Shown: positions 4,381 to 62,944 of the stretch, piece after piece
How positions within the stretch are numbered: the stretch's first letter is position 1
Layout of the letters: each line of letters opens with the position of its first letter
IMG/VR virus record: IMGVR_UViG_3300036820_000008
Location: 1-64,000 of that record
Length of the DNA stretch: 64,000 bases
Strand: one strand, 5' to 3'
DNA from: a virus
Notes under the pieces: generated by a model
What the model saw: only the letters and a program-made list of their open reading frames with translations
The model's database searches: none
What the model was told of the DNA's origin: nothing
Program-made: the position numbers and the translations under genes

Positions 4381-4805
4381 CACAGCTCCAGTTTCTTCTG
4401 GACACGAGCAGTTGGCTTGTGCCAATCGTGTTCTGGATATCGATCACGATGATCCCGGCCGTGTCTGCCATATGGCCATGGTGGAAAACGTCATGGGGAT
4501 GGAACATCATGTCCATTCCTATGGTGATAGCGGCAACTCTGGTGTCTTCTGGCCTGCACTACACATTCGGCATCGACGCCCAGTCTCTGTGGTTCGATTG
4601 GCTTGTTATAATCGGTCTTACCATAGCTGGCGTGGCCGAGCTGCACAGACTGTTCCTTATCATTAGGGGACAGATATCAGAGCACAGGAAGACAGGAGCA
4701 ATCAGGATAAGTCCTGATGCTACTCCGGGTGCCGACAAGGAAACGAAAGTATTAGATAGGAGATGTAGTGCCTGTAGCAACCCAGATCGGGTACGACGCC
4801 ACTAG
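4377..4805 (+). CDS. Multi-TM membrane protein (putative holin)
   Basis: Three hydrophobic segments; directly upstream of the endolysin. Confidence 0.55.
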   Translation: MTQLQFLLDTSSWLVPIVFWISITMIPAVSAIWPWWKTSWGWNIMSIPMVIAATLVSSGLHYTFGIDAQSLWFDWLVIIGLTIAGVAELHRLFLIIRGQISEHRKTGAIRISPDATPGADKETKVLDRRCSACSNPDRVRRH

Positions 4806-14200: not shown

Positions 14201-14298
14201 GTCACTCGGCTGCCGCGTGTGGTGCCGTTCTGCATGTTCGTCTGCCCCGGCCGGATCTGGGCCGCACTGTGGGCAGACATATTCTTTGTCGGGCAATG

Positions 14299-14949
14299 CT
14301 ATCCGCCGATCTCGTTGGCACGCTTCATGGTCTGCAACCATGCAATGGCATTGCGCGGGTCGCTCTTTAGTCTGTCCGCATAATGCAGAAGTGCGTGAAG
14401 CAGGCGTCCCTGGCGGAGAGCATCGTCGACGGCTACGTGCGGAACGATATCGTCCAGCTTGACGTTGAACAGCTTGTACAGATCTCCCTCCTCCGGCCTC
14501 TCGTAGTACCCGGACACGGCGAGCAGCCCGTTCGCGTAGCTGCGGATGTCCATGCATGCGAACCCGAGTGGGTTCTTGCCGTAGTAGTTATGCATGTACC
14601 AGTTAATGAAGGTGAAGTCGAAGCCAGCGGGCCACGCTACCGCTACTAGCTTACCGTACGCCGCGAGGTCGATAAGCCATACAGCAAACTGCTCCATTGC
14701 CCTGCTGGCCTCGATCTGGTTCTCATTGACGATACGCCAAGCCTCCGGCTGAGTGCCCCACCAGTCCATGGTGTCGGTGTCCTCGAAGGAACCATCGATC
14801 GGAATGATGTTGCGAGAGAACGACATTCCCCTGCTCACCACAAGATCGTCGGCATTGAATGCTACGGCACCGACAGACAGCATGCTGTTGAGGCCAGGAG
14901 ACGGGCCGTTGGTCTCGATGTCTAGCGAAATGTAAACTTCCTGCCTCAT
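14299..14949 (-). CDS. DEDDh 3'-5' exonuclease
   Basis: SLDIETNGP, AGFDF, MDIRS, HVAVDDA. Confidence 0.85.
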   Translation of the reverse strand: MRQEVYISLDIETNGPSPGLNSMLSVGAVAFNADDLVVSRGMSFSRNIIPIDGSFEDTDTMDWWGTQPEAWRIVNENQIEASRAMEQFAVWLIDLAAYGKLVAVAWPAGFDFTFINWYMHNYYGKNPLGFACMDIRSYANGLLAVSGYYERPEEGDLYKLFNVKLDDIVPHVAVDDALRQGRLLHALLHYADRLKSDPRNAIAWLQTMKRANEIGG

Positions 14950-20472: not shown

Positions 20473-20511
20473 GTCCGGCCTGAGCCCCTGCGGCGGAAGC
20501 TCAGGCCGGAC
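20473..20511 (-). terminator. Hairpin after the SSB-like gene
   Basis: Perfect 13-bp inverted repeat GTCCGGCCTGAGC/GCTCAGGCCGGAC. Confidence 0.65.
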
Positions 20512-24914: not shown

Positions 24915-24945
24915 TTCTGTCTCCTCGTTGGATATGATGGTTAGG

Positions 24946-24999
24946 TGGGGGTAGCGGGCCGGACTTGAACCGGCAACCCACGCCGCTCTCGCTACCCCC
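24946..24999 (-). ncRNA. Mini tRNA-like RNA (acceptor-like stem plus T-arm only)
   Basis: GGGGGTAGCG-N15-GCCGG TTCAAGT CCGGC-C-CGCTACCCCC-A(CC). Confidence 0.5.
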
Positions 25000-25115
25000 T
25001 TGGGATCCCTGCGGCATCATCACGGGAAGAAGCTCGCAGGCGTCGCCGCTGTGGTGCACGACACGCAAGACACGACACGGACTCTAGGTGCGCCCATCTA
25101 CGAACTCCTTCCCTG

Positions 25116-25189
25116 TGGGGAGACTGGGGCTCGAACCCAGGACCTGAGGATTATGAGTCCCCGGCTCTGACCAGCTGAGCTACCTCCCC
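25116..25189 (-). tRNA. tRNA with anticodon CAT (Ile2 or elongator Met)
   Basis: Full cloverleaf: GGGGAGG...GGGGA CTCATAA TCCTC...CTGGG TTCGAGC CCCAG TCTCCCC A. Confidence 0.9.
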
Positions 25190-25195
25190 GTGTCT

Positions 25196-25768
25196 TCACT
25201 TGCTACCTTCGTCCTCCTTCCATTCCGGGAATATCAGGGCCGTCGTGTAGTTCTTTGTGTTGGACTTAAGCCAGTGGAGGGATGCTGTGTGCCTGGCGAT
25301 GACATGGTTCGGGAACGAAAGCTGATACCCGTGATACCCCGGCAGCCGAACCGCCCAGTGTCCGTCCTTCAGCTCGATGTAGTTCAGGACGAACAAGGTT
25401 TCGCCAGGATTCTTGTCCGGGTCAACTGCGCGAACAAGGTTGAGCGTCCCCTTCTGCCCTATGTCCAGTGGCTCTTCCTTGGCGAGCAGGGCGCATTCCC
25501 CGAAACCCCGAAATCTAGTACAGAAGAATGTCTGGAAGGCATCCTTCGGCACGCACTGAGCAGCGACGAGCGGTGTCCCCTCCTCCACGGTGTGCGGTGC
25601 CGTTATGCACCATCCGGGGTGAACCGACGACCGAATGAATCCGGTAGCATTAACACCCCTTGGGCCAGGCTTGGTCGGTGCGTGTGTAGACTCTGCCGAT
25701 GCAGCAGATGTCGACCCTGTGAGCAAGATAGCGGCCACGACTGCGATTGCTGCTGTCCTTGCCTTCAT
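25196..25768 (-). CDS. Secreted ricin-B-lectin-like protein, paralog of 23968-24546
   Basis: Signal peptide; TGFIRSSVHPGWCITA aligns with TGLIHPNGNPGWCMTA; both end in FPxWK. Confidence 0.6.
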   Translation of the reverse strand: MKARTAAIAVVAAILLTGSTSAASAESTHAPTKPGPRGVNATGFIRSSVHPGWCITAPHTVEEGTPLVAAQCVPKDAFQTFFCTRFRGFGECALLAKEEPLDIGQKGTLNLVRAVDPDKNPGETLFVLNYIELKDGHWAVRLPGYHGYQLSFPNHVIARHTASLHWLKSNTKNYTTALIFPEWKEDEGSK

Positions 25769-25983
25769 AGTCCCTTCCTGAATTCGTTAAACAGCCGGGC
25801 GCTCGTTTCCCTTGCCAGAGGAAAACGACCCGCCCGGCCCCGGACTGGCATCCAGTTGCAGCCACCCAGCTTAGAGGCTCGGCGCTTACCATTGAAGGTT
25901 GCTAGCCACTCCCCGATCTCCGCAGTCCCACCCTCTCCCGTTTGCGGGGTCAGCTGCACCAGAGCGGACGGCTAGCAACCCGG

Positions 25984-26066
25984 TGGTGGGTGCAGGACTT
26001 GAACCTGCGTAGGCTATGCCGACGGCTTTACAGACCGTTCCCTTTGCGCATCTCGGGCAACCCACC
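25984..26066 (-). tRNA. tRNA-Tyr(GTA)
   Basis: GGTGGGT...ACGGT CTGTAAA GCCGT, long variable arm, GCAGG TTCAAGT CCTGC ACCCACC A. Confidence 0.9.
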
Positions 26067-26215
26067 GGGTCCCTGTCCACCCCGCGAGAGTGGACAGGAT
26101 TCAATTGTTTGTGAAATTGTTGTGGCAGGGCGGGGTTCAACCCCAGCCGGAAGCACGGCGTTTGCGCGCCCCACCTTGGAACTGCGGTCGATCGTTGCTG
26201 CAATTGCTTCATCCG

Positions 26216-26289
26216 TAGCGGGGGTCAGATTTGAACTGACGACCTCTGGATTATGAGTCCAGCGAGCTACCAAACTGCTCCACCCCGCC
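26216..26289 (-). tRNA. tRNA-Met(CAT) with an initiator-like body
   Basis: GGCGGGGTGGAGCAG...GGTAGCTCG CTGGA CTCATAA TCCAG...GTCAG TTCAAAT CTGAC CCCCGCT A. Confidence 0.9.
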
Positions 26290-26471
26290 ATGCTCCTCAG
26301 GGACCCAACCGAGCAAGCTTCTCGACGACCCGACCGTAGTCGAGCACAATATACTATTGCGTCGATACTATCCTGCACGGCAGCTCACCTCCCAGCTGTG
26401 CCCCAACCCTGAGGAACCCCGACCGACCATATCTTACGTCCGCATTGTATCAACGGCCGGTCGGGAGCTTG

Positions 26472-27053
26472 CTAGTCCTGGCTATACGGGAATGCTTCCC
26501 GCTCTGGTGTTACAGGACGGTTGGGCACGTACCCCTCGGGTCGCTCTTCGTCGTTCAGCACTGGTTGCGGGCCGGTCTCGTGTACGTGGGCCATGCCATC
26601 ATGTGCATGGCCAGAACGCTCGCTCAGAATATCAGCGACAGGATCCGTCGTGGAGTAGACTTCCGCCTCGCTAGGGTCCTGTACGTCTGCTGGCACACGG
26701 CGCGGCAGCTTCCCGCTCTCGTGCCTTCCGGCCATCTCTCGCGCGTCCGGGTCCATGGGGGTGTCAACCAGATTGTCGCCGGGTAGCGTGACATTCTGGT
26801 AGTATGGCGGCCTAGGAGCGGCCTCCTCGGCCTTTGTCTCCTGGAACCTTTCCGGATCGTAGTTGTGCCTCGCGCTGTAGTGCTGGGCCTCAACGATGTG
26901 CATCCCGTTGAGCATCTTGTGCGTGACGTGGACGCTGGCTCCAAGCCGATCCTCGTGCCCTCCGATGACGTACTCGCCGTCGGGCAGATCCCCGTTTACC
27001 TGGGGCTCTGACAGGTTCCCGTCCTTGACCCTGAATGCGAACGTGTAGCTCAC
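26472..27053 (-). CDS. Hypothetical protein
   Basis: 193-aa ORF with AAGGAG RBS. Confidence 0.6.
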   Translation of the reverse strand: MSYTFAFRVKDGNLSEPQVNGDLPDGEYVIGGHEDRLGASVHVTHKMLNGMHIVEAQHYSARHNYDPERFQETKAEEAAPRPPYYQNVTLPGDNLVDTPMDPDAREMAGRHESGKLPRRVPADVQDPSEAEVYSTTDPVADILSERSGHAHDGMAHVHETGPQPVLNDEERPEGYVPNRPVTPEREAFPYSQD

Positions 27054-27061
27054 AACACTCC

Positions 27062-27613
27062 TTACTGGAACTGGTTGTCGGTGATGAACTTGATCCAGTC
27101 CGCTGGCTGCACCAGCGGCTGTGCTACGTTCTTCGGGTACCCCAGAACAGCCCTTGCATATCCGATTACGGCAGCGCTAGAACAGACGACATGCCCGGCC
27201 ACCTCGCCACGCCACGTCTCGGACCACGGATCCGGTATGTGCAGGTCACGGAGTCCGTCGTCGAAGATGGCATCCCAGTCATACCCGACGCCAAGCAGGC
27301 TTTTCATCGTTGCGCACACCTGAGCGCGCTGGGCGTCGGTCTTTGGCTGGTTGCGATTGGTCACGGTGTAAACACTGCCGAGATACCCCGTCGCGTCCTG
27401 CCAGCCAACGCCTCCCGGCCGCCCCTCTATGCACCACCATGTTCCCTTGGCATCCTGGTGGTCTAGAACGGCTATATGGTTTGCCGCGCATGCCTCGTCG
27501 ATAAGTGACGCGCCGATACGTATGAGTTCAGCGCCAGCACCGTCTGTGTGAATGGCCAGGACATCTCCGGCCTTTACGCCCTCTGTATTGAGGTGCCCTA
27601 TAGTCTCGGTCAT
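27062..27613 (-). CDS. Permuted papain-like (YiiX/NlpC-P60) amidase
   Basis: GDVL...HIAV...IE...G...YD...VCSS, with His preceding Cys. Confidence 0.7.
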   Translation of the reverse strand: MTETIGHLNTEGVKAGDVLAIHTDGAGAELIRIGASLIDEACAANHIAVLDHQDAKGTWWCIEGRPGGVGWQDATGYLGSVYTVTNRNQPKTDAQRAQVCATMKSLLGVGYDWDAIFDDGLRDLHIPDPWSETWRGEVAGHVVCSSAAVIGYARAVLGYPKNVAQPLVQPADWIKFITDNQFQ

Positions 27614-27878
27614 GTCCGGCCCTTTCGCATTAACGTTTTGTGGGTGGTGGCCCTGGTCCGTAGTCGCTCTTCACAGCCTACAACCCCTAAGAAGAGGCTG
27701 CTCGTCACGAGCCCAGCAGTCATAGTTCTCGATCAGATGGTCCCAGGTGTTACCCTGCGACTCGGCCACCACTATTCAATTGTTCGGTATGGTCCGGGTC
27801 CCAGCGTTCGCTTTGTCCGCTACGGCTGCATTGGAGATGGCTTAACGCCAGGACCCGGAGTATGCCGTCCGTCGCTAC

Positions 27879-29093
27879 TTAGCCGACGGTGTATGTGATG
27901 GTGATGGTGGATCCTATAACAGCCGGGGAGCCGCCAGCCGGTGTCTGGGCCGTAACGCTGCCCAGGTTGCCCGTACCGGAAGAGCTACCCGCCGCCACCT
28001 TGGGGACGAACCCGGCCGCCGTGATCAGGCTCTCGGCGTAGGCTAGGTCCTTGCGGCCGATCTCGTTGGGGGCCTTGACGGTCCCAACAGGAACGGTGTA
28101 TGTCAGCGACACAGTCGAGCCGGGGACTACCGCTGTGCCGGCCGCCGGGAACTGACTGGTGACCGTGCCCAGGTTGCCGACACCGGAGTTGCCCTTGTCC
28201 GCCGCCACTAGCCCCGCCGAGGTAACAGCGGCATTGGCGGTAGCCAGGTCGTGACGCCCGATCTCGTTGGGCACCGTGGCCGTCTTGGCCGGCATTGTGT
28301 TCACGAGGTTCTGGCCGTCGACGCTGGTCACGTAACCGGTGCCGCCGGGCGTCTGCCCGTCGCCGATGCCGATCCACGCCCAGACCTCTGGATCCTTGGT
28401 TCCGTTGTCCGTGCGATTGTTGAAGAACGCGAGGACCTGCTCCATGGTGAAGCTGTCGGTGTCCTCACCGGCGCAGGGGGTCTCGCTGGTGTTCGGGATG
28501 ACTGCGGTGCTCTGGCCCGACCAGACGCTGTTGAAGTCCGCGCAGTCGTCAGTGTTGTTGATCGCGCCCATGGCGGCCTTGTTGGTGCCGTCGTACGCCA
28601 CCGGAGTGTCACTGGAGCCGTGGTCGAGGAAAACGCTGTCGTTGGTCGGATCGTTGATGAACGGGAACCCCAGGTACGTTCCGGAGCCGTCCGTGCCGAA
28701 GTAGAGGTTGTACCCCTCCAGGTCCACGCCGTTGATGACCGGCGGGACGAACTGCCCATTGGTGTTGTACAGAGAATCGAGCGTTCCCAGCGGCACGACC
28801 ACGCCGACGTCAGCGCCGTCGGTGGTACTCACAGTGAAGTCCACGCCGTCAGCTCCCAGCGTCTGGCTGGCGTCGTGGTAGTCCAGCGGGGCATTGCTGA
28901 ACTCGTTGTGGGCGGACACGAATGCGCTGCTGGCGGCGAACTGGTAGTTGAACGCCTTGACATATGAGGTGTGCGGCGCGGCGACGGCCGCGTTCGCGAG
29001 CGAGGGCAGCGCAACAAGCCCGAGTGCGCATGTGGCAGTGACCACGAGGCCCACCAGCAACGCACGGATCTTACTGAACCTAGACATCTGCAT
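27879..29093 (-). CDS. Secreted protein with two C-terminal PASTA domains
   Basis: Signal peptide; two repeats of PNEIG...A...AG...G.V..Q.P..G.....GST. Confidence 0.8.
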   Translation of the reverse strand: MQMSRFSKIRALLVGLVVTATCALGLVALPSLANAAVAAPHTSYVKAFNYQFAASSAFVSAHNEFSNAPLDYHDASQTLGADGVDFTVSTTDGADVGVVVPLGTLDSLYNTNGQFVPPVINGVDLEGYNLYFGTDGSGTYLGFPFINDPTNDSVFLDHGSSDTPVAYDGTNKAAMGAINNTDDCADFNSVWSGQSTAVIPNTSETPCAGEDTDSFTMEQVLAFFNNRTDNGTKDPEVWAWIGIGDGQTPGGTGYVTSVDGQNLVNTMPAKTATVPNEIGRHDLATANAAVTSAGLVAADKGNSGVGNLGTVTSQFPAAGTAVVPGSTVSLTYTVPVGTVKAPNEIGRKDLAYAESLITAAGFVPKVAAGSSSGTGNLGSVTAQTPAGGSPAVIGSTITITYTVG

Positions 29094-29387
29094 CCTTCTC
29101 GGTTGAAACACTCGCCTCAGACGAGGGGAGCGGGAGGATCGGTCCTCCGGCGGGCTGCAGCGAACTTGAGCCAGCGCTGCAGCCTGCCGAGCGGCCGGTT
29201 TCTCCATTCAGAATGCTCCTTGCGGAGCACATACAGTTGGTCGCTGCTCTGAGTCTGCGCTATATCCGCCAGCACGTGTATGCCGTCCATCTGGCTCCTC
29301 TGTTCGGGGTCAGATCGAAAGTCGTATGGCTCAGTTGGCACGCCAGTCATGAGTGTTATGTGCTCTTTCACTTAGGGGTTGTGAAAT

Positions 29388-29497
29388 TGGACCCGGTCCG
29401 CAGGCAACAGCGTTGACTTACGCCGAGTGGCCGCCCCAGAGGAAATTTGGAGTTTCGGCCAGAAGGCTTCTCGTTCTCGCGTCACGTGCGGACCGGG
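29388..29497 (-). ncRNA. Candidate 110-nt structured RNA with 11-bp closing stem and 3' TCCA
   Basis: CCCGGTCCGCA...TGCGGACCGGG-TCCA; intergenic. Confidence 0.4.
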
Positions 29498-29656
29498 GGT
29501 TTCCGCCCTCCGGGAAGCAGAAGGTGGAGATTTTGTGGTCCCGACCCCACGGCCAGCGCGGAGCCGGGACCTATCGCCCTGCTGGTCGGAGTCCAGCTGA
29601 GCGGCGCTGGCTTTCAGGGTGTCCGCACGACCGCACTCCCCTTAGCCAGCACGTTC

Positions 29657-35290: not shown

Positions 35291-37050
35291 GTCTTGCTCC
35301 TCTGGGGTCGGGGTTGTTTCCCTGTCTGTCGTTTTCTGGAAAACGGGGCGGGGTGTTTTGGAGAAAACCCTACTGTTACGGCCGGAATTACCCGGATTCC
35401 TTGCGAGAGGATGTGTGCTCTTCGCAGTTACCCTGTTTGTCGGTGGGATAGATGTAAAGGACATTAGCCACGACGGACCTTCCGTCCTCGGCCTGATACT
35501 TAACCTTCTTGTTGTTCTGCACAGATCGCAGAAAACCCATAGCCGTACCATCGGACACATCGAGGGCGATCACGAACATCTTGCTCATTTGTACCACTCC
35601 GCGTGTTTCCAGATGACCTTGGGGTTACGCACGTAGTCGCTCTGATGGTCGTACCGGTCTAGCATGTTCTTTGCGGCTTCGATCTCGTACACGACGCCGA
35701 ACAGAGTCTCTCCGATCAGGTTGGTGTACTCGACGATCCTTACGACAGGACCGGTGAAGCTGTCCTCGTCTCCAGGGTAGACGCCGCAATTGTTGATCAG
35801 GATGTCTACGTCTGCCCTATTGCTTATTGTAGCCATCCCTGCTCCACATCAAGATGCTCGTACTGCTTCTCGTACGCCCTCTGCTCTGCCTTACGAAAGT
35901 GCTCCTGCACGGCATTCTTCGCGAATAGGGCTGCGAGACCCAATGCTGAAGCGCCGAGTATTACGACTGATGAGATGACGACGGTTTCCATGCCCTTGGG
36001 TCGCCTCCCTCCTCGTTGTGCAGAGCGATCTTCCTCTGCGGGAGTGGCTGGCATATCGCGCAACGTTCCTTTCCGTGAGCATGCGCTCGGCCGGGCTCCT
36101 TTGTTTTCTTGTTTAGCTTGATTATTCGGCGCAGAAGTTTAATGCTCGTTGCGCCACTGATGTCTCGCTTTTCCTGGTCGTTCCCGTTACGCTTGTGCCT
36201 GGCTCTGCGCGCCTGTGCGCCCGGCTTCACGTCGTCCCGGCCGGTCTGCGCCGTGTAGTTGGCGATTCTTTGCTCCAGAAGCACTTCTTGTCATCCCAAT
36301 CAGTTCTGTGTTGTACCGTTGCTTCGCTTTGGCCGCAGCCCTGCAAAAGCTGCCGAACTCTGCAGTCGTCATGCCATATGCGAGCCACTCTGGCAGGAAT
36401 ATGCCCAGATCTTGAAGGTCAGAAGTTATGTGTGCCTTCTGTTCCAGGGTGATCTGGCTATCTGAAATCAATTGCCCAACCTCCTTCCAGAGCCCGGCTC
36501 GCACCCTTTGGGACTGCTGCCCGTCGGACAGTAAGAATGCGAGCCGGACGTCTGGCCGGAGGTGCCGGCTAGATCAGGTTGAAAAAGGACTGCCTGTTCT
36601 GGAAGACGAGATCCATCTCCCAGTTGTTGCCGGCCTGGTCAGGGCCGTTCTGCCAGCATTGCATGCCGTGGGTCCCGACGTACTGGCCCTTGCGATCCAT
36701 ATTCATCTCCTTGCATCACCAGCGCTGTTGTTGAGCTGGTCTGCGGTCTATTTCCGTATTCAGTTGTATTCAGATCACTCCGCGTAGCTCGCTTCTATGC
36801 GCCGAGCCTACGCGGACTTGCCGGCCGCGCCGAGGTGCATTCACATGTTCACGTTGAAGTAGTAGAACCCAATCAATTGAATCACCTCCTCTTGCTGTAG
36901 TTAAGTTTGGATCCGGCCCGTGCTTGGGGGTATTGGCGCCATCTACCTAGCCGAGTTGACGCAGCACGGGCCGGAAGTTTGCAGAGACTTTAACTGGCGC
37001 TGTCCCAGTATGCGGAGTCGCTTCCATCATGCCAGACCATCTCGCACAGC

Positions 37051-54076: not shown

Positions 54077-56190
54077 AGCTCTATTATACCTCCTGCACGA
54101 GCGTATGGATAGCTTATATAAGTTCGTTATGCAGTATCCGGGTGTATGCATAAGAGCCTTAATTACCGGCGCTAACGAAGTGCATGCCACTGAGAGCATA
54201 TCGTTCCTCGCCGAACGAGCCTCGCGGAGACGCACCACCTCGTGTGGCTGTCAGGCCTGGCACTCGCTTATTTCGTGCATCAGACGGGTGCCGTCGATGA
54301 CCGCTTGGTACCACTCTTCGGTACCCCATGTCAGGCCTGCTGTGTCAAGTCGACCGTCGGAGGTGGTCAGGAAGTATGCCTCGCAGGCAGCGTTGGTGTA
54401 AGGTGATCCATACCACTCGGCCGCTGGGCATTCTTCCGGAATGTGCTCTACTGGGCTTGGGCACTCTGAGCATCCTGCCATGGCTATCTCCTAGTCGTTG
54501 AATATGATGACGCGCCAGTCCAGCTTGGTGTCCACTGGCTTGAGGACCCACCACTGGGTGTCATTATCGTTGTCGACTTCGACGCTGTCCAGGACACATA
54601 CAACCTGGTCTTTGCCGTCGTACTGAGACTCCATTGTGAAGCCCTCGTCGCAGGCATCGTCGTACACGCGGCCGAACTGGAAGCCAGCTCGCAGACCAAG
54701 GTCGGATGCCTCGGCGACGTATGATTTGTCCTTCTTGCTCCACGTGAATTTCTTGGAGCTCAGGATGGGCTGTGGCCTGAGTACTGTCATGTCACACCAT
54801 CGGGATTCCGCGTCGGCGCTGCTGCTCGTAGTCAGCCTCCTGGACTGTGCCGGGAGTGAACTGCTCCGGATTGGCCGCGATGTACTCGAGACTGGCGTCC
54901 GACATGTCGTATATCTCACGATATGTTTTGCTCTGCATTACTGTGCCTTCCTGATCATCTTGACGTACATCCGGTATACGTACTCGCTGTCGTCGAACTC
55001 GAATGACGTATCTGTGTCGGTGCCGACTACGATTGTGGTGTCTATGTCCTCGAATATCGGATGGCCCTGAATCGTCTGTGCAATGGCCCTAGCCTGCGGC
55101 GATGTGGGGTCCACGAATTCCACCTTGCCATCGAGAATGTCCTCGAGGTAGATGTCCTTGCCGGTGTCTTCCATTGTGCTCCTTTTTATTTGGCTGTTAT
55201 TCTGGAATCGGGTAGCTGGCATCCAGCTGCTCTTTGGACGCTCCTAGCGCCCAGTATGCTGCGCGAGCCCTCAGAACGCGCTGTAGGTATTCGTCTGGCG
55301 GAATCTGTCGGTTCATGGCCTCCTTGATCCTTGTGACAGTAGCATCGTCCAGATGCTCGCCATCAGGAATGGAGAAAACATATAGGTGATCGCCATCGGG
55401 GGTGTCGGATTGGCTAGGCATTGTTCTCCTCTGGGATTGTCCGCTTCCTGTGGACACCATCCTCGCCGGTACTCAGCAACCGGCGGGATGGAATCAACAG
55501 GTCAGCCGTGTAGCTGGCTAAGGGTTCTGTCGTAGATCGGGGACATATCCTCGGCACAGTCCTGGGTGCGGATAGCCTCGGCCAGGCTGTGAAGGAGGGC
55601 TGCGACTGTTTCTCGATCGATGCCTTCGCCGAGAGCCATCTTGGCGGCGACGGTAGTGTTGTAGCTGAACATGTCCATGGCGAGGTGTACGTCGCAATCG
55701 TGATCTTCGTTGACACCCATCCACAGAGCGCAGTGGTGACACCACCTGCTTTCGCCGTTGATCTGATGTGGGACGTTCATGACGTCGACGGTATTGTTCT
55801 TGCCGTTTGACATTATCGGTTCCTCGCAGCCTCGGAGTCGGCCATGTCGCTGTCGTAAGTATCCTCGGCTCGAACACATGTGCCAGGCACGGGGTTGGGC
55901 CCCATCGTGACGGCGTCGGACAGCCGACAGATGCGCTCTATGGTGGCGTCGTCTTCGGCGTACTCGACATTCATGATCTCGGATCCGTTGAGCTGGACGC
56001 CTGTCTCGCCATACGTGATTACGACAGCTACGTCGGATGGCTGACAGCGATAATTGTGGACGAGCTCTCTGGTGACCAGGACGGTCGTCGTGATCTGATC
56101 AGCATCAAAGCTGATCAGAGTGACCATCACCGGCTCGTTCAGGAGCCATGCTGGAATGGACATTTCATTCTCCCTCTGAGCTACTATCGT

Positions 56191-56249
56191 GGTAGCTCCC
56201 CCGGTCGTCCCGCAGGGAAGTCGGGACGGCCAGAGCAGCTCGCCGCTAG
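56191..56249 (-). repeat. Conserved intergenic stem-loop element; second copy at 57251-57307
   Basis: Shared flanks GGTAGCTCCCCCG...GGCCAGRGCAGCTCGCMGCTAG around inner hairpins that differ but still pair. Confidence 0.7.
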
Positions 56250-56603
56250 AGATCTCCGCAGGGTCCGTCCTGAAGGCCAGGGGTCTCGTCCTCGTCTTCG
56301 TACGGACAGGAGATGTACTGTTCCCAGAGCTCACGCTCTCCGTCGATCTCCATCTCATCGAACATTGAGACGAATGGCATGAAGTCATCGCCGACATCGA
56401 CGAACTGGCCATTGAGCCACATCTTGCCGTCTGGGAAGAAGGTGATGAGCATCACGTCCCTGCCATTCTCAGGGAATCGCAGTGCTAGGTACTGTCCATC
56501 GCCGATCCTGCTCAGGGCAATCTTCTCGGTGATTACCCAGTCGTACTCGGGGGTCGGGAATTCCATCTTGTTGGTTTCCTTTCGGAGCGCCGGTACTGCT
56601 ACT

Positions 56604-56633
56604 AGTCTACCCTACCGGGCAGCCTGCCCGCTA
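56604..56633 (-). promoter_or_regulatory. Phage promoter TAGCGG-N18-TAGACT
   Basis: Recurrent consensus. Confidence 0.6.
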
Positions 56634-57867
56634 CCCCTAGCCGACGGCAATATCGGCGTTGGGGTATCAGGCTAGTCAACCGCTAGCTTGGCGGCTCGAT
56701 CTCATCGGTGATCGTGAAGCGCAGCTCCCCGATGAGGAACTCCTCTTCAGCCTCGACCGTGAATGGCCCGAACTGCTTCTTCTCGTATCCGTACACGGGA
56801 AGGGCAGATAGGGCCGTGAACATGTCCTGGCCCTCAGGGCCGCTGTAATTGTTGACCAGGAACATGGCCGTCTGCGTGGACGTCAGGTTGTCGAACTTGG
56901 GCATCAGCCGAACTCCCCGTCGTTGATCGTCGAGCGGGCTCGGATCAGCCCGTTGTAGGAGTCATGCCCGTACTGTTCGGCAGTGCACTTCTGGGCGATG
57001 ACGTAGTAGCCGAAGTTCTGCGCCTGCTCGGCGGTGAACAGCGTCCACTCGGTGCCGACCACCGTGAATGGCTCCGGCTTGATGGGGTGTTTCTCTCGCC
57101 AGCGGTCGATGTCGGCGAGATAGCTGTCGAACTCTTCAGGGGTCATGTCCCCGATGTTCGGCATCAGAAGATCACGATGATCAGGATGATGATCACGGCG
57201 ACCCAGAACAGCTTCTTCATGAGGCTTCCTCTCCTCTGGCTACCTACCTTGGTAGCTCCCCCGAGCCATCCGTATAGGCACGGATGGCCAGGGCAGCTCG
57301 CAGCTAGGAACTACAGGAACCTGATCGGGATGTAATTGTCGCATGCCTGACAGTATGCTGTCGGATTGTCACCGGCGAACACGCCGGGGTGCTCGCATTC
57401 GCTACTGGCTCTGGGTGCTGGGCTGTTGACGTGGAGGGCGTCGTACGCGACCCTGAGAGCCGTCATGGCATCCTGCAGCCGGTCGAACGGAAGAGACACC
57501 ACGCTCTCGTTGAAGCGCACATACCAGCGCTTGGATTTGGGGTTGCTGATGATGTCCCACTTGGCGTCCGCCTTCAGCACGTAGTGCCGGCTGGCGAACC
57601 TGCGGGTCATGTCGTACGGCAGGTGACTGTCCAGGCGAAAGTACCTGCCGTACGGCGGGATTGCTCCGGTCATGGCTCAGTAGCCCCAGCCCATGGCCAG
57701 CATGGCCACGCACAGCATGATGGTCCAGATCGTGCCTACGATGATGCTCTTGGTGCTCATTTGACGTACCCTCTCTCGGAACGGCATCCCAACGGGCTGC
57801 CTCCCCGGCATCCGCGCCTCGGCGTGAGGCGCGGCTACCAGGGGGACGGACCGGCGTGACCTAGCGC

Positions 57868-61744: not shown

Positions 61745-62944
61745 ATGGAGCAGATAAACAAGAAGCTGTTTAACTGGGCTTCTATTCTCGAGGATGGTGC
61801 CCGGGAACAGACGATCCGAACAGCAAGCATGCCGTTCATACACCCGCATGTGGCCGTCATGGCCGATGCTCACTGGGGCAGAGGAGCAACCGTAGGGTCG
61901 GTTATTCCGACGGTCGGGGCGATCATTCCAGCGGCCGTGGGAGTAGATATCGGGTGCGGGATGATAGCGCACAGGACATCGCTGACGGCCGAAGATCTGG
62001 CCGATCCTGTGATTCGCCGCAGGATCCGCGAGGAGATCGAGCGCTGTATCCCGCTGTCTATGGGGATGTACAATCAGAGCCTCTGGGATCACAAGACAGA
62101 GCGTCGCGTCCAGGAGCTCGAGTCGATATCTGGGGCGGCGGATGCGAATGAGATCGCAGATTGGACCATGCAGATTGGATCTCTCGGGTCAGGTAACCAC
62201 TTCATCGAGATCAGCATCGACGAAGAGGACCGTATCTGGCTGTTTCTGCACTCAGGTTCCAGGGGCGTCGGCAACAAGCTGGCGATGAGGCACATCAAGA
62301 TCGCCCAGGAGTTCTGCGAACGGTACTGGATTGATCTTCCTGATCCCGACCTTGCGTATCTGGTCGAGGGGACGCCTGAGTTCGACAACTATCTGAGGTG
62401 TCTCACCTGGGCGCAGCATTTCGCTCTGCTCAATCGGGAGGAGATGATGCACAGGGTAGAGGAATCTGTCTATCACGTCACCGGCAGGAACTGGTTCGTC
62501 GACGAGCGCGTCAACTGCCACCACAACTACACCGAGCAGATGAGCGGCGAGCTGATCGCCAAGTGGAAGTACCCCAAGGGGCGTAAGGGGCACATATGGC
62601 TCTCCCGTAAGGGTGCCATCGATGCCACCGAAGGCAGGCCGGGGCTGATTCCTGGATCGATGGGGACGCGCTCGTATGTCGTCGAGGGCAAGGGGAACCT
62701 GCTCTCGCTCAACTCGTCTCCGCACGGGGCGGGGCGTGAGTACAGCCGTTCTGCGGCCAAGAAGACGTTCACACGCGCGCAGCTCGACGAGGCGATGATC
62801 GGCATCGAGTGGCGGCATAGCGATGCCTTCCTGGACGAGATTCCACAGGCATACAAGGACATCGACGTAGTGATGAATGATGCATCGGATCTAGTCCGCA
62901 TCAGGCACACTTTGCGTCAGATCATCAATGTCAAAGGAGACTGA
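61745..62944 (+). CDS. rtcB: RtcB RNA 3'-phosphate ligase
   Basis: MADAH.G.G..VG, VGVDIGCG, GSLGSGNHFIE, LHSGSRG, HHNY, RKGA, IPGSMG, HGAGR, DEIP.AYK. Confidence 0.97.
   Translation: MEQINKKLFNWASILEDGAREQTIRTASMPFIHPHVAVMADAHWGRGATVGSVIPTVGAIIPAAVGVDIGCGMIAHRTSLTAEDLADPVIRRRIREEIERCIPLSMGMYNQSLWDHKTERRVQELESISGAADANEIADWTMQIGSLGSGNHFIEISIDEEDRIWLFLHSGSRGVGNKLAMRHIKIAQEFCERYWIDLPDPDLAYLVEGTPEFDNYLRCLTWAQHFALLNREEMMHRVEESVYHVTGRNWFVDERVNCHHNYTEQMSGELIAKWKYPKGRKGHIWLSRKGAIDATEGRPGLIPGSMGTRSYVVEGKGNLLSLNSSPHGAGREYSRSAAKKTFTRAQLDEAMIGIEWRHSDAFLDEIPQAYKDIDVVMNDASDLVRIRHTLRQIINVKGD

Follow-up and report, generated by a model that had tools for sequence, protein, structure and literature searches.

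The DNA considered here, hereafter the window, is the first 64 kb (64,000 nucleotides, nt) of a 94.6-kb phage genome with direct terminal repeats and 57% G+C, recorded in IMG/VR as IMGVR_UViG_3300036820_000008. The phage is uncultivated, G+C-rich and actinophage-like, and comes from soil. Its minus-strand genes run from about 59 kb down to about 6 kb, and an island on this strand, between 24.9 and 29.7 kb, contains three tRNA genes interspersed with small accessory genes. These tRNAs, the only ones found in the window by ARAGORN and Rfam, are a tRNA-Met (CAU) at 26215..26289 (68.4 bits with Rfam), a tRNA-Tyr (GUA) at 25982..26066 (50.2 bits), which encodes A-CC and not the full CCA, and a second tRNA-Met (CAU) at 25115..25189 (63.6 bits). 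The protein genes of the island encode an acidic/Lys-rich protein, a protein of 84 amino acids (aa), a secreted PASTA-domain protein, a 183-aa protein whose family is named NlpC-family hydrolase by one source, and proteins of 193, 190 and 102 aa. The spacers between these genes hold structured elements, six of which (E1 to E6) had been described in a sequence-only reading as a family of processed phage RNAs with paired ends and tRNA-like 3' tails. The present analysis concerns the nature of these elements and of further ones found beside them.

Closed-stem elements of the tRNA island

Folding gave a closed-stem structure at each of the six places that had been named, with the expected closing stem, and all six fold below shuffled controls (z-scores of the fold against dinucleotide shuffles, from -2.3 to -5.2). 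Like everything described in this section, they are read from the minus strand. E1 (25897..25980), whose 5' end lies 1–3 nt after tRNA-Tyr, is a rod-like domain with a closing stem of 11–12 base pairs (bp), a z-score of -3.7 and the tail UUCA. E2 (26295..26414) ends 5 nt before tRNA-Met and is a multi-branch domain (z -2.3) closed by 8 Watson-Crick bp, or 11 with flanking pairs, with the tail AGCA. E3 (27644..27772), another multi-branch domain (z -2.5), has a 9-bp closing helix and the tail CCA; some 28 nt separate its end from the start of the 183-aa gene. E4 (27793..27859) is a hairpin of 15–16 bp (z -5.2) with the tail (A)CCA, beginning 20 nt past the stop codon of the PASTA-domain gene. 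E5 (29388..29497), a rod-like domain (z -4.6) with an 11-bp closing helix and the tail UCCA, stops about 38 nt short of the 84-aa gene, and E6 (29537..29571) is a 15-bp hairpin (z -4.9) with the tail ACA, about 85 nt past a stop codon. The tails therefore read as had been reported (TTCA, AGCA, CCA, ACCA, TCCA and ACA in DNA letters). E1, E2, E3 and E5 are 84–130 nt long and rod-like or branched; E3 to E6 lie 1.3–3.3 kb from the tRNAs, between protein-coding genes.

The claim that the non-Watson-Crick stem positions of E1 to E6 are G-U pairs on the minus strand also held, with nine such pairs in E2 and three in E6. The minus-strand fold is better than the plus-strand fold by 4–12 kcal/mol in five of the six elements (8.2 for E1, 12.4 for E2 and 10.4 for E6), E5 being symmetric. 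When the island is taken as a whole, the minus strand is clearly favoured in eight of ten elements, with G-U pairs in their stems. Helices of at least 9 bp at a spacing of 30–170 nt number about 500 per strand of the genome, so a bare closing helix of 8–9 bp means little. Closing helices like those of E2 and E3 are thus common by chance, and the case for these two elements is carried by the whole fold and the strand asymmetry, plus conservation for E3.

No similarity was found among E1 to E6, nor any other copy of any of them in the genome, and they can therefore be treated as a class by architecture only; the proposal that they form one family is not upheld. Stem-pattern scans of IMG/VR gave no other copy of the E1 and E5 stems. 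Identification of the elements as dispersed repeats or miniature inverted-repeat mobile elements was rejected on these grounds, every element being single-copy in the genome. No target complementary to the elements over at least 14 nt was found in the phage genome.

That the elements are minus-strand RNA structures and not tRNAs was borne out, as neither ARAGORN nor Rfam finds a tRNA beyond the known three, and E1 to E6 are all without a T-arm. Rfam searches of the window, at the gathering threshold and at E-values up to 10, returned tRNAs only and no family at E1 to E6. Ribozyme or riboswitch identity was set aside for want of an Rfam match, and a hammerhead-core-like string in E3, CUGAUCGAG, is not conserved in the closest relative. 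Identity with Y RNAs of the YrlA type was likewise rejected: a Ro60 gene is lacking (PF05731 drew no match anywhere in the 94.6-kb genome), and so are an Rfam match and, in E1 to E6, a T-arm. The idea that they are ordinary terminators was answered in two parts. An intrinsic terminator with a U-tract was excluded for E1 to E6, none of which has a U-tract or is called by a terminator scan; the only minus-strand calls of that scan in the island adjoin the element E9, whose stem contains the T-run. E4 and E6 may nevertheless be ordinary transcript-end hairpins, acting in termination without a U-tract.

Further structured elements occur in the island beyond those listed before, which brings the mutually unrelated, end-paired modules to about a dozen. 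E7 (25024..25113) is a closed-stem RNA between the second tRNA-Met and E8, with the minus-strand fold better by 18 kcal/mol, and is the best-supported member of the class. E8 (24947..24999), a mini tRNA-like element, is 53 nt long; its end stem measures 10 bp, it has a canonical T-arm, and its tail is A-CC-U. T-arm matches number just four in the 94.6-kb genome, one in E8 and the others in the three tRNAs. With a tRNA on one side and a tRNA-like element on the other, E7 would be cut out exactly by RNase Z and RNase P. The spacer between tRNA-Met and tRNA-Tyr (26072..26175) holds a closed stem at 26124-26175, linkers at 26099-26119 and a hairpin at 26072-26098. E2a (26420..26468) is a hairpin after the 193-aa gene. 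In E9 (25793..25855) a small hairpin is accompanied by a long one, rich in G+C, after which comes UGUUUAA; the element lies about 25 nt short of the next gene and is probably the terminator of the tRNA unit. E0 (29606..29650) is a hairpin just past the stop codon of the Lys-rich/acidic gene (-24.1 kcal/mol on the minus strand versus -19.0 on the plus strand).

Conservation and turnover among related phages

Relatives of the region were reached via the flanking SNF2 helicase and the 183-aa protein. The closest is IMGVR_UViG_3300036792_000176 (L006, also L031), with 76% protein identity and a record that is 93% complete; more distant relatives are the L004 group, the L011 group, L008/L032 and L015. 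The protein search also showed relatives at 60–63% identity. In 80 still more distant IMG/VR loci, reached via the 183-aa protein, no DNA homologues of the elements were found, and few of these loci carried tRNAs. Near and distant DNA searches of GenBank phages with the region matched at the tRNAs only, and four relatives searched with Rfam at E-values up to 1 likewise gave tRNAs only.

At the level of sequence, only E3 among E1 to E6 has a homologue in L006. The E3 region aligns at about 70% overall, within which identity reaches 97.6% over a block of 41 nt and 100% over one of 23 nt. All 31 of the 31 predicted pairs are kept; three have changed on both sides, three have changed to G-U types and none is broken. 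With a covariance model of E3, run against 20 sources, L006 gave the sole homologue. The GGTGGCC...GGCCACC stems found in L004 and L011 failed to score with it, and this pair of elements was compared by eye only. The unit formed by E7 and E8 gave a stronger signal, with 54 of 54 pairs kept in L006 and nine compensatory pairs versus at most one in slid controls; three of the compensatory pairs lie in the end stem of E8, and the 28-nt apical block of E7 is 96% identical. Because E3 and E7 differ from L006 by indels of 1 nt and 2 nt, they are not coding. E2a is also kept in L006 (18 pairs, two of them compensatory and none broken, with the loop kept), and E9 is conserved in both L006 and L004; 8 of its 25 pairs have changed on both sides. 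Some elements are thus under selection, namely E3 and the neighbouring E7, E8, E2a and E9. Among E1 to E6, compensatory change could be read for E3, and E1, E2, E4, E5 and E6 have no comparators. In E3 and E7 the loop blocks are nearly invariant while the stems co-vary, which suggests sequence-specific contacts or partners.

A 22-nt block of the E7 loop has one exact match, the only bacterial one in the genome collection, in Actinokineospora inagensis (NZ_AXWW01000053.1; L113:4047-4068). It lies antisense to the 3' end of an acetyltransferase-like open reading frame, with no similarity past the 22 nt, and was taken as a chance match, about 0.1 of which would be expected in 596 Gb by a rough estimate.

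The remaining elements turn over between relatives. E2 is cleanly absent from L006 as a 124-nt indel, so that E2a there runs directly into the tRNA, and E1 has no counterpart. At the positions of E4, E5 and E6, L006 has positional analogues of unrelated sequence: that of E5 is a closed-stem domain with a z-score of -3.7 and that of E4 a shorter hairpin, and none of the three carries CCA. A different closed-stem domain is present in the sister lineage of L004 and L011, where the closing helix measures 15 bp and eight compensatory pairs were counted over the whole domain, and L008 has two closed stems directly after its tRNA-Arg (z -4.5 and -3.1), as well as an element similar to E8. Hairpins at the position of E0 follow the homologous Lys-rich/acidic gene in L004, L011 and L015. 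Since structures of the same type are kept while their sequences differ, it is the architecture that appears to be selected, with sequences turning over fast and whole modules coming and going. The island itself is a variable accessory region in which relatives differ by whole genes.

Aberrant tRNA-like genes were observed at the place of tRNA-Tyr in the relatives (L006:8034-8103, L004:14241-14347 and L011:6789-6901). That of L006 has an anticodon arm made of a 4-bp stem and a tetraloop, without an anticodon, and those of L004 and L011 have an insertion of 30–40 nt in the anticodon arm. The L004 gene scores 46.6 bits on the Rfam tRNA model, yet is uncalled by ARAGORN.

Tails, linkers and short motifs

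The presence of tRNA-like 3' tails was a central part of the sequence-only reading. An [N]CCA follows directly after 2.9% of all comparable helices in the genome, so that its occurrence in three of the six elements (E3, E4 and E5) gives p ~5e-4, a value calculated post hoc. As a conserved feature the tail did not survive comparison: none of the NCCA tails of E3, E4 and E5 is kept in the L006 counterparts, E3 of L006 ending in ACU, and the ACCA tail of the L004 stem is CUUU in its L011 counterpart. A compositional bias also contributes. GGWCC, a palindrome, reaches a density of 8.5 sites per kb across the spacers of the island (the intergenic parts of 24915-29656) versus 2.0 per kb genome-wide, where 189 sites are observed against 266 expected from base composition. 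These sites build the stems of E3 to E6, with GGWCC-rich stems shared by E4, E5 and E6, and their fourfold enrichment partly generates the GGWCCA endings. The NCCA tails are treated here as unproven. A CCA-adding enzyme was not found in the phage.

The recurring spacer motifs were present as reported, each exactly twice and at the expected places. One copy of the AU-rich linker CAATTTCACAA is at 29379..29389 on the minus strand; allowing one mismatch gives three matches versus 0.48 expected. The second motif, ACAATTGAAT, gives seven matches with one mismatch versus 4.05 expected, which is not significant. The two stand in tandem at 26099-26119, in the spacer between tRNA-Met and tRNA-Tyr. A related linker, ACAATTGAATAG (27773..27784, minus strand), lies directly 5' of E3 and is identical in L006, and ACAAYTNAAYAG-like linkers occur in the RNA islands of L004, L006 and L011. 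In four lineages the A+U-rich ACAAYTNAAYAG linker immediately precedes structured RNA units and is in every case on the coding strand (window 26099-26119, 27773-27784 and 29379-29389; L004:14149 and 14500; L006:5819, 7114, 7968 and 7980; L011:6698, 7296 and 7526). In L006 an extra gene of about 260 aa is situated between two linker copies (ACAAYTNAAY) that stand in tandem in the Met-Tyr spacer of the window. The ACAAYTNAAYAG linker could serve as a point of entry for an RNase, as a promoter of a type other than sigma-70 or as a recombination joint. As a sigma-70 promoter, the ACAATTGAAT linker was rejected, as it misfits the consensus and the promoter scan calls nothing there. A T7-type RNA polymerase was not found, in a search that had no positive control.

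Another short motif, UCCUCUGG, was noted at or near the apical loops of E5 (29436-29443) and E9 (25815-25822), and also in loops of analogues at L006 ~4465-4480 and L004 ~14293-14300. Its sequence is exactly complementary to CCAGAGGA, which forms the ribosome-binding site in several early genes of the minus strand (near 57239, 55434 and 51419, for example). Pairing of UCCUCUGG in trans with these ribosome-binding sites is conceivable from this complementarity.

Relation to stable phage RNAs and alternative explanations

Stable RNAs of the tRNA regions of coliphages are the closest known parallel. In the T5 record (AY543070), RNAI, RNAIII, RNAIV, RNA2H and RNAX are annotated as 'stable RNA with unknown functions', RNA1-RNA3 are tRNA-like, and the RNAs abut tRNAs among small open reading frames. 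Six T5 RNAs were folded here, and most close via their own 5' and 3' ends (among those with end-paired closing stems are RNAIII, RNAI, RNAIV, RNA2 and RNA3), with the tails GCCA, CA, ACA and UACCA. They resemble the window elements in being 70–170 nt long, co-oriented with tRNAs and often abutting them, in having an end-paired closing stem with a short tail, and in the mixing of tRNA-like and non-tRNA-like members. They differ in that there is no sequence similarity, the T5 RNAs being A+T-rich and from a coliphage, and in having been seen experimentally as stable according to their record, whereas the window elements are known from sequence. Of the E elements in the window, moreover, only E1, E2 and E7 touch tRNAs, E3 to E6 lying between protein-coding genes. 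E1, E2, E7 and the Met-Tyr spacer stem lie in the tRNA region, co-oriented with the tRNAs and abutting them, as RNAs of the T5 and T4 type do. In T4, rnaC and rnaD are processed from a tRNA precursor. These RNAs (species 1 and species 2) have been described as 'small, stable RNA' adjoining tRNA-Arg, with unknown roles (PMC3014915; PMC2330249, Figure 1 legend). They are encoded right after tRNA-Arg in a tRNA cluster, and rnaC holds a T-arm, as does E8; their predicted closing stems are weak, however, and they share no sequence similarity with the window elements.

Other known RNAs share single features with the elements. YrlA-type Y RNAs have a long stem formed by the RNA ends, as in the window elements, and are often encoded in RtcB or Ro60 loci (PMC4201824). 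The YrlA of M. smegmatis is cleaved by RNase P and gains CCA in vivo, which shows that a tRNA-like stem can be so processed (PMC4201824). Unlike YrlA loci, the window genome has no Ro60/TROVE gene, and E1 to E6 have no D-arm or T-arm and no Rfam match. Precursor 4.5S RNA and the C4 antisense RNA of phages P1/P7 are non-tRNA substrates of RNase P with a stem and a 3' CCA-type tail. E3, E4 and E5 resemble them, as the 3' strand of the helix is followed directly by N-CCA, and differ in that this tail is not conserved in relatives. The early RNase III sites of T7 and intrinsic terminators are, like E0, E4, E6 and E9 past their stop codons, stable coding-strand hairpins between cistrons, but E1 to E6 lack U-tracts, and E1, E2, E3 and E5 are 84–130-nt rod-like or branched domains.

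On the observed folds and strand, the compensatory conservation of E3, E7, E8, E2a and E9, and the way in which whole modules are present in one relative and missing from another, the E elements can be read as independent self-closing RNA domains of a leftward tRNA-mRNA transcript, like the stable RNAs of T5 and T4, a reading to which a probability of about 0.5 is given. A single leftward polycistronic transcript would carry the three tRNAs, the mini tRNA-like E8 and several small accessory genes. A first group comprises the elements that touch a tRNA or tRNA-like unit, namely E1, E2, E7 and the stem in the Met-Tyr spacer. Maturation of the tRNAs would fix at least one of their two ends: RNase P is predicted to cut at the 5' terminus of the tRNA downstream, and RNase Z or RNase E at the 3' terminus of the one upstream. 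Since E1 and E2 touch tRNA genes, the tRNA-processing enzymes would define one end of each. The paired termini of this group should protect it from exonucleases, and its members would therefore probably persist as small stable RNAs; by analogy, it is this group that offers the best candidates for T5-like stable RNAs. A second group, the plain hairpins past stop codons (E0, E4, E6 and E9), probably represents termination or 3'-end protection signals. The multi-helix domains E3 and E5, 25–40 nt upstream of the next gene, form a third group and are probably leader domains involved in 5'-end protection or gene regulation.

Several points weigh against this reading. The elements come from an uncultivated phage and are described here through sequence and predicted folds alone. 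E3 to E6 touch no tRNA, and none of the processing considered here would release them. The likeness to T5 and T4 RNAs is one of architecture and context only, with no apparent sequence homology. No homologue of E1, E2, E4, E5 or E6 was recognised in the searches made, and the evidence for their folds therefore comes from thermodynamics and strand asymmetry alone. Very stable intergenic hairpins also occur elsewhere in the genome, other intergenic regions are equally structured, and part of the set may therefore be generic transcript punctuation not tied to tRNAs. Such hairpins were seen at 36472-36568, 57761-57867 and 20473-20511, along with two intergenic copies of a twin-hairpin element (GAGCUGCYCUGGCC-hairpin-GGGGGAGCUACC) at 56170-57310 on the minus strand, and structured spacers are thus not confined to the tRNA island.

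Alternatives differ in how much of the set they explain. It is doubtful that every element works in trans as a stable non-coding RNA, for instance as a decoy or sponge that engages host RNases, nucleases of tRNA-directed defence or RNA-binding proteins. In that case the closing stem and NCCA tail would make the elements pass for tRNA minihelices with RNase P and the CCA-adding enzyme. The position of N-CCA right at the helix end in E3, E4 and E5, the near-invariant loop blocks of E3 and E7 above co-varying stems, the retention in this clade of anticodon-less or aberrant tRNA-like RNAs (E8 and those of L006 and L004) and the processing of M. smegmatis YrlA are what such a role would lead one to expect, but the CCA tails are absent from E3 of L006, from the L006 analogues of E4 and E5 and from the L011 counterpart of the ACCA-tailed L004 stem, the phage has no detected CCA-adding enzyme, its genome offers no complementary target of at least 14 nt, and E4 and E6 are plain gene-end hairpins. 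A second alternative takes most of the set as ordinary, made up of terminators (intrinsic or lacking a U-tract), hairpins that stabilise mRNA and some end pairings that arose by chance in G+C-rich spacers, with no discrete RNA product. This explanation is unlikely. It draws on the simple hairpins of E4 and E6, on the frequency of 8-9-bp helices, on the modest z-scores of E2 and E3, on equally structured intergenic regions elsewhere and on the lack of sequence conservation in L006 at the positions of E4, E5 and E6. It does not account for the long rod-like or branched domains of E1, E2, E3 and E5, which are unlike terminator hairpins, for the absence of U-tracts and terminator calls in E1 to E6, or for conserved loop sequences with compensatory changes in E3, E7 and E8.

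A role at the level of DNA, as inverted-repeat borders of cassettes or miniature mobile elements that drive the gain and loss of accessory genes, in the manner of T4-type promoter/stem-loop cassettes, seems distinctly improbable. The clean indel of E2 and the missing E1 in L006 would agree with it, as would whole-gene differences among relatives in this accessory region and the extra L006 gene between linker copies that are tandem in the window. However, all elements are single-copy, with no related copy in the genome or IMG/VR; no target-site duplications are visible; and the G-U stem pairs become A-C mismatches on the other strand, the folds being strand-asymmetric. Least credible, to the point of being very hard to sustain, is the possibility, raised in the sequence-only reading, that the elements are substrates of the phage RtcB ligase, sealed or circularised through juxtaposed ends. 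RtcB is indeed encoded in the genome, and paired termini would bring both ends together, but its gene (61808-62938, plus strand) belongs to a rightward operon starting near 59.9 kb, 33 kb from the elements and in another transcription unit. It is present in the L032 record (G003) and was not found in the records of L006, L004, L033 and L034; L006, in its 93%-complete record, nonetheless keeps E3, E7 and E8. No bulge-helix-bulge motif or nuclease generating cyclic phosphates is evident, and the ends left by RNase P and RNase Z are not joinable by RtcB.

Altogether, the observation behind the sequence-only reading is confirmed and its interpretation partly supported, and the best reading, by analogy, is that the elements resemble the stable RNAs of T5 and T4 and not a new family of tRNA-tailed RNAs. 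A broader form of this proposal, also unlikely at present, is that stem-closed RNA cassettes would constitute a general class of phage small RNAs, gained and lost as modules, released by the host tRNA-processing machinery and acting in trans with anticodon-less tRNA mimics, for example, by sequestering host RNases or the nucleases of tRNA-directed defence, or by covering ribosome-binding sites. The value of the present elements is limited by the phage being uncultivated and by most of them having no homologue; E3 and the unit of tRNA-Met, E7 and E8 are the best-supported, concrete candidates for function. Stable RNAs from the T4 and T5 tRNA regions were recognised decades ago, and the sources consulted name no function for them (PMC3014915; AY543070 annotation). 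Finding the same type of architecture in a G+C-rich, actinophage-like soil phage, together with compensatory evolution, nearly invariant loops and the gain and loss of whole modules, suggests that the stem-closed design is widespread and selected and not a quirk of coliphages.

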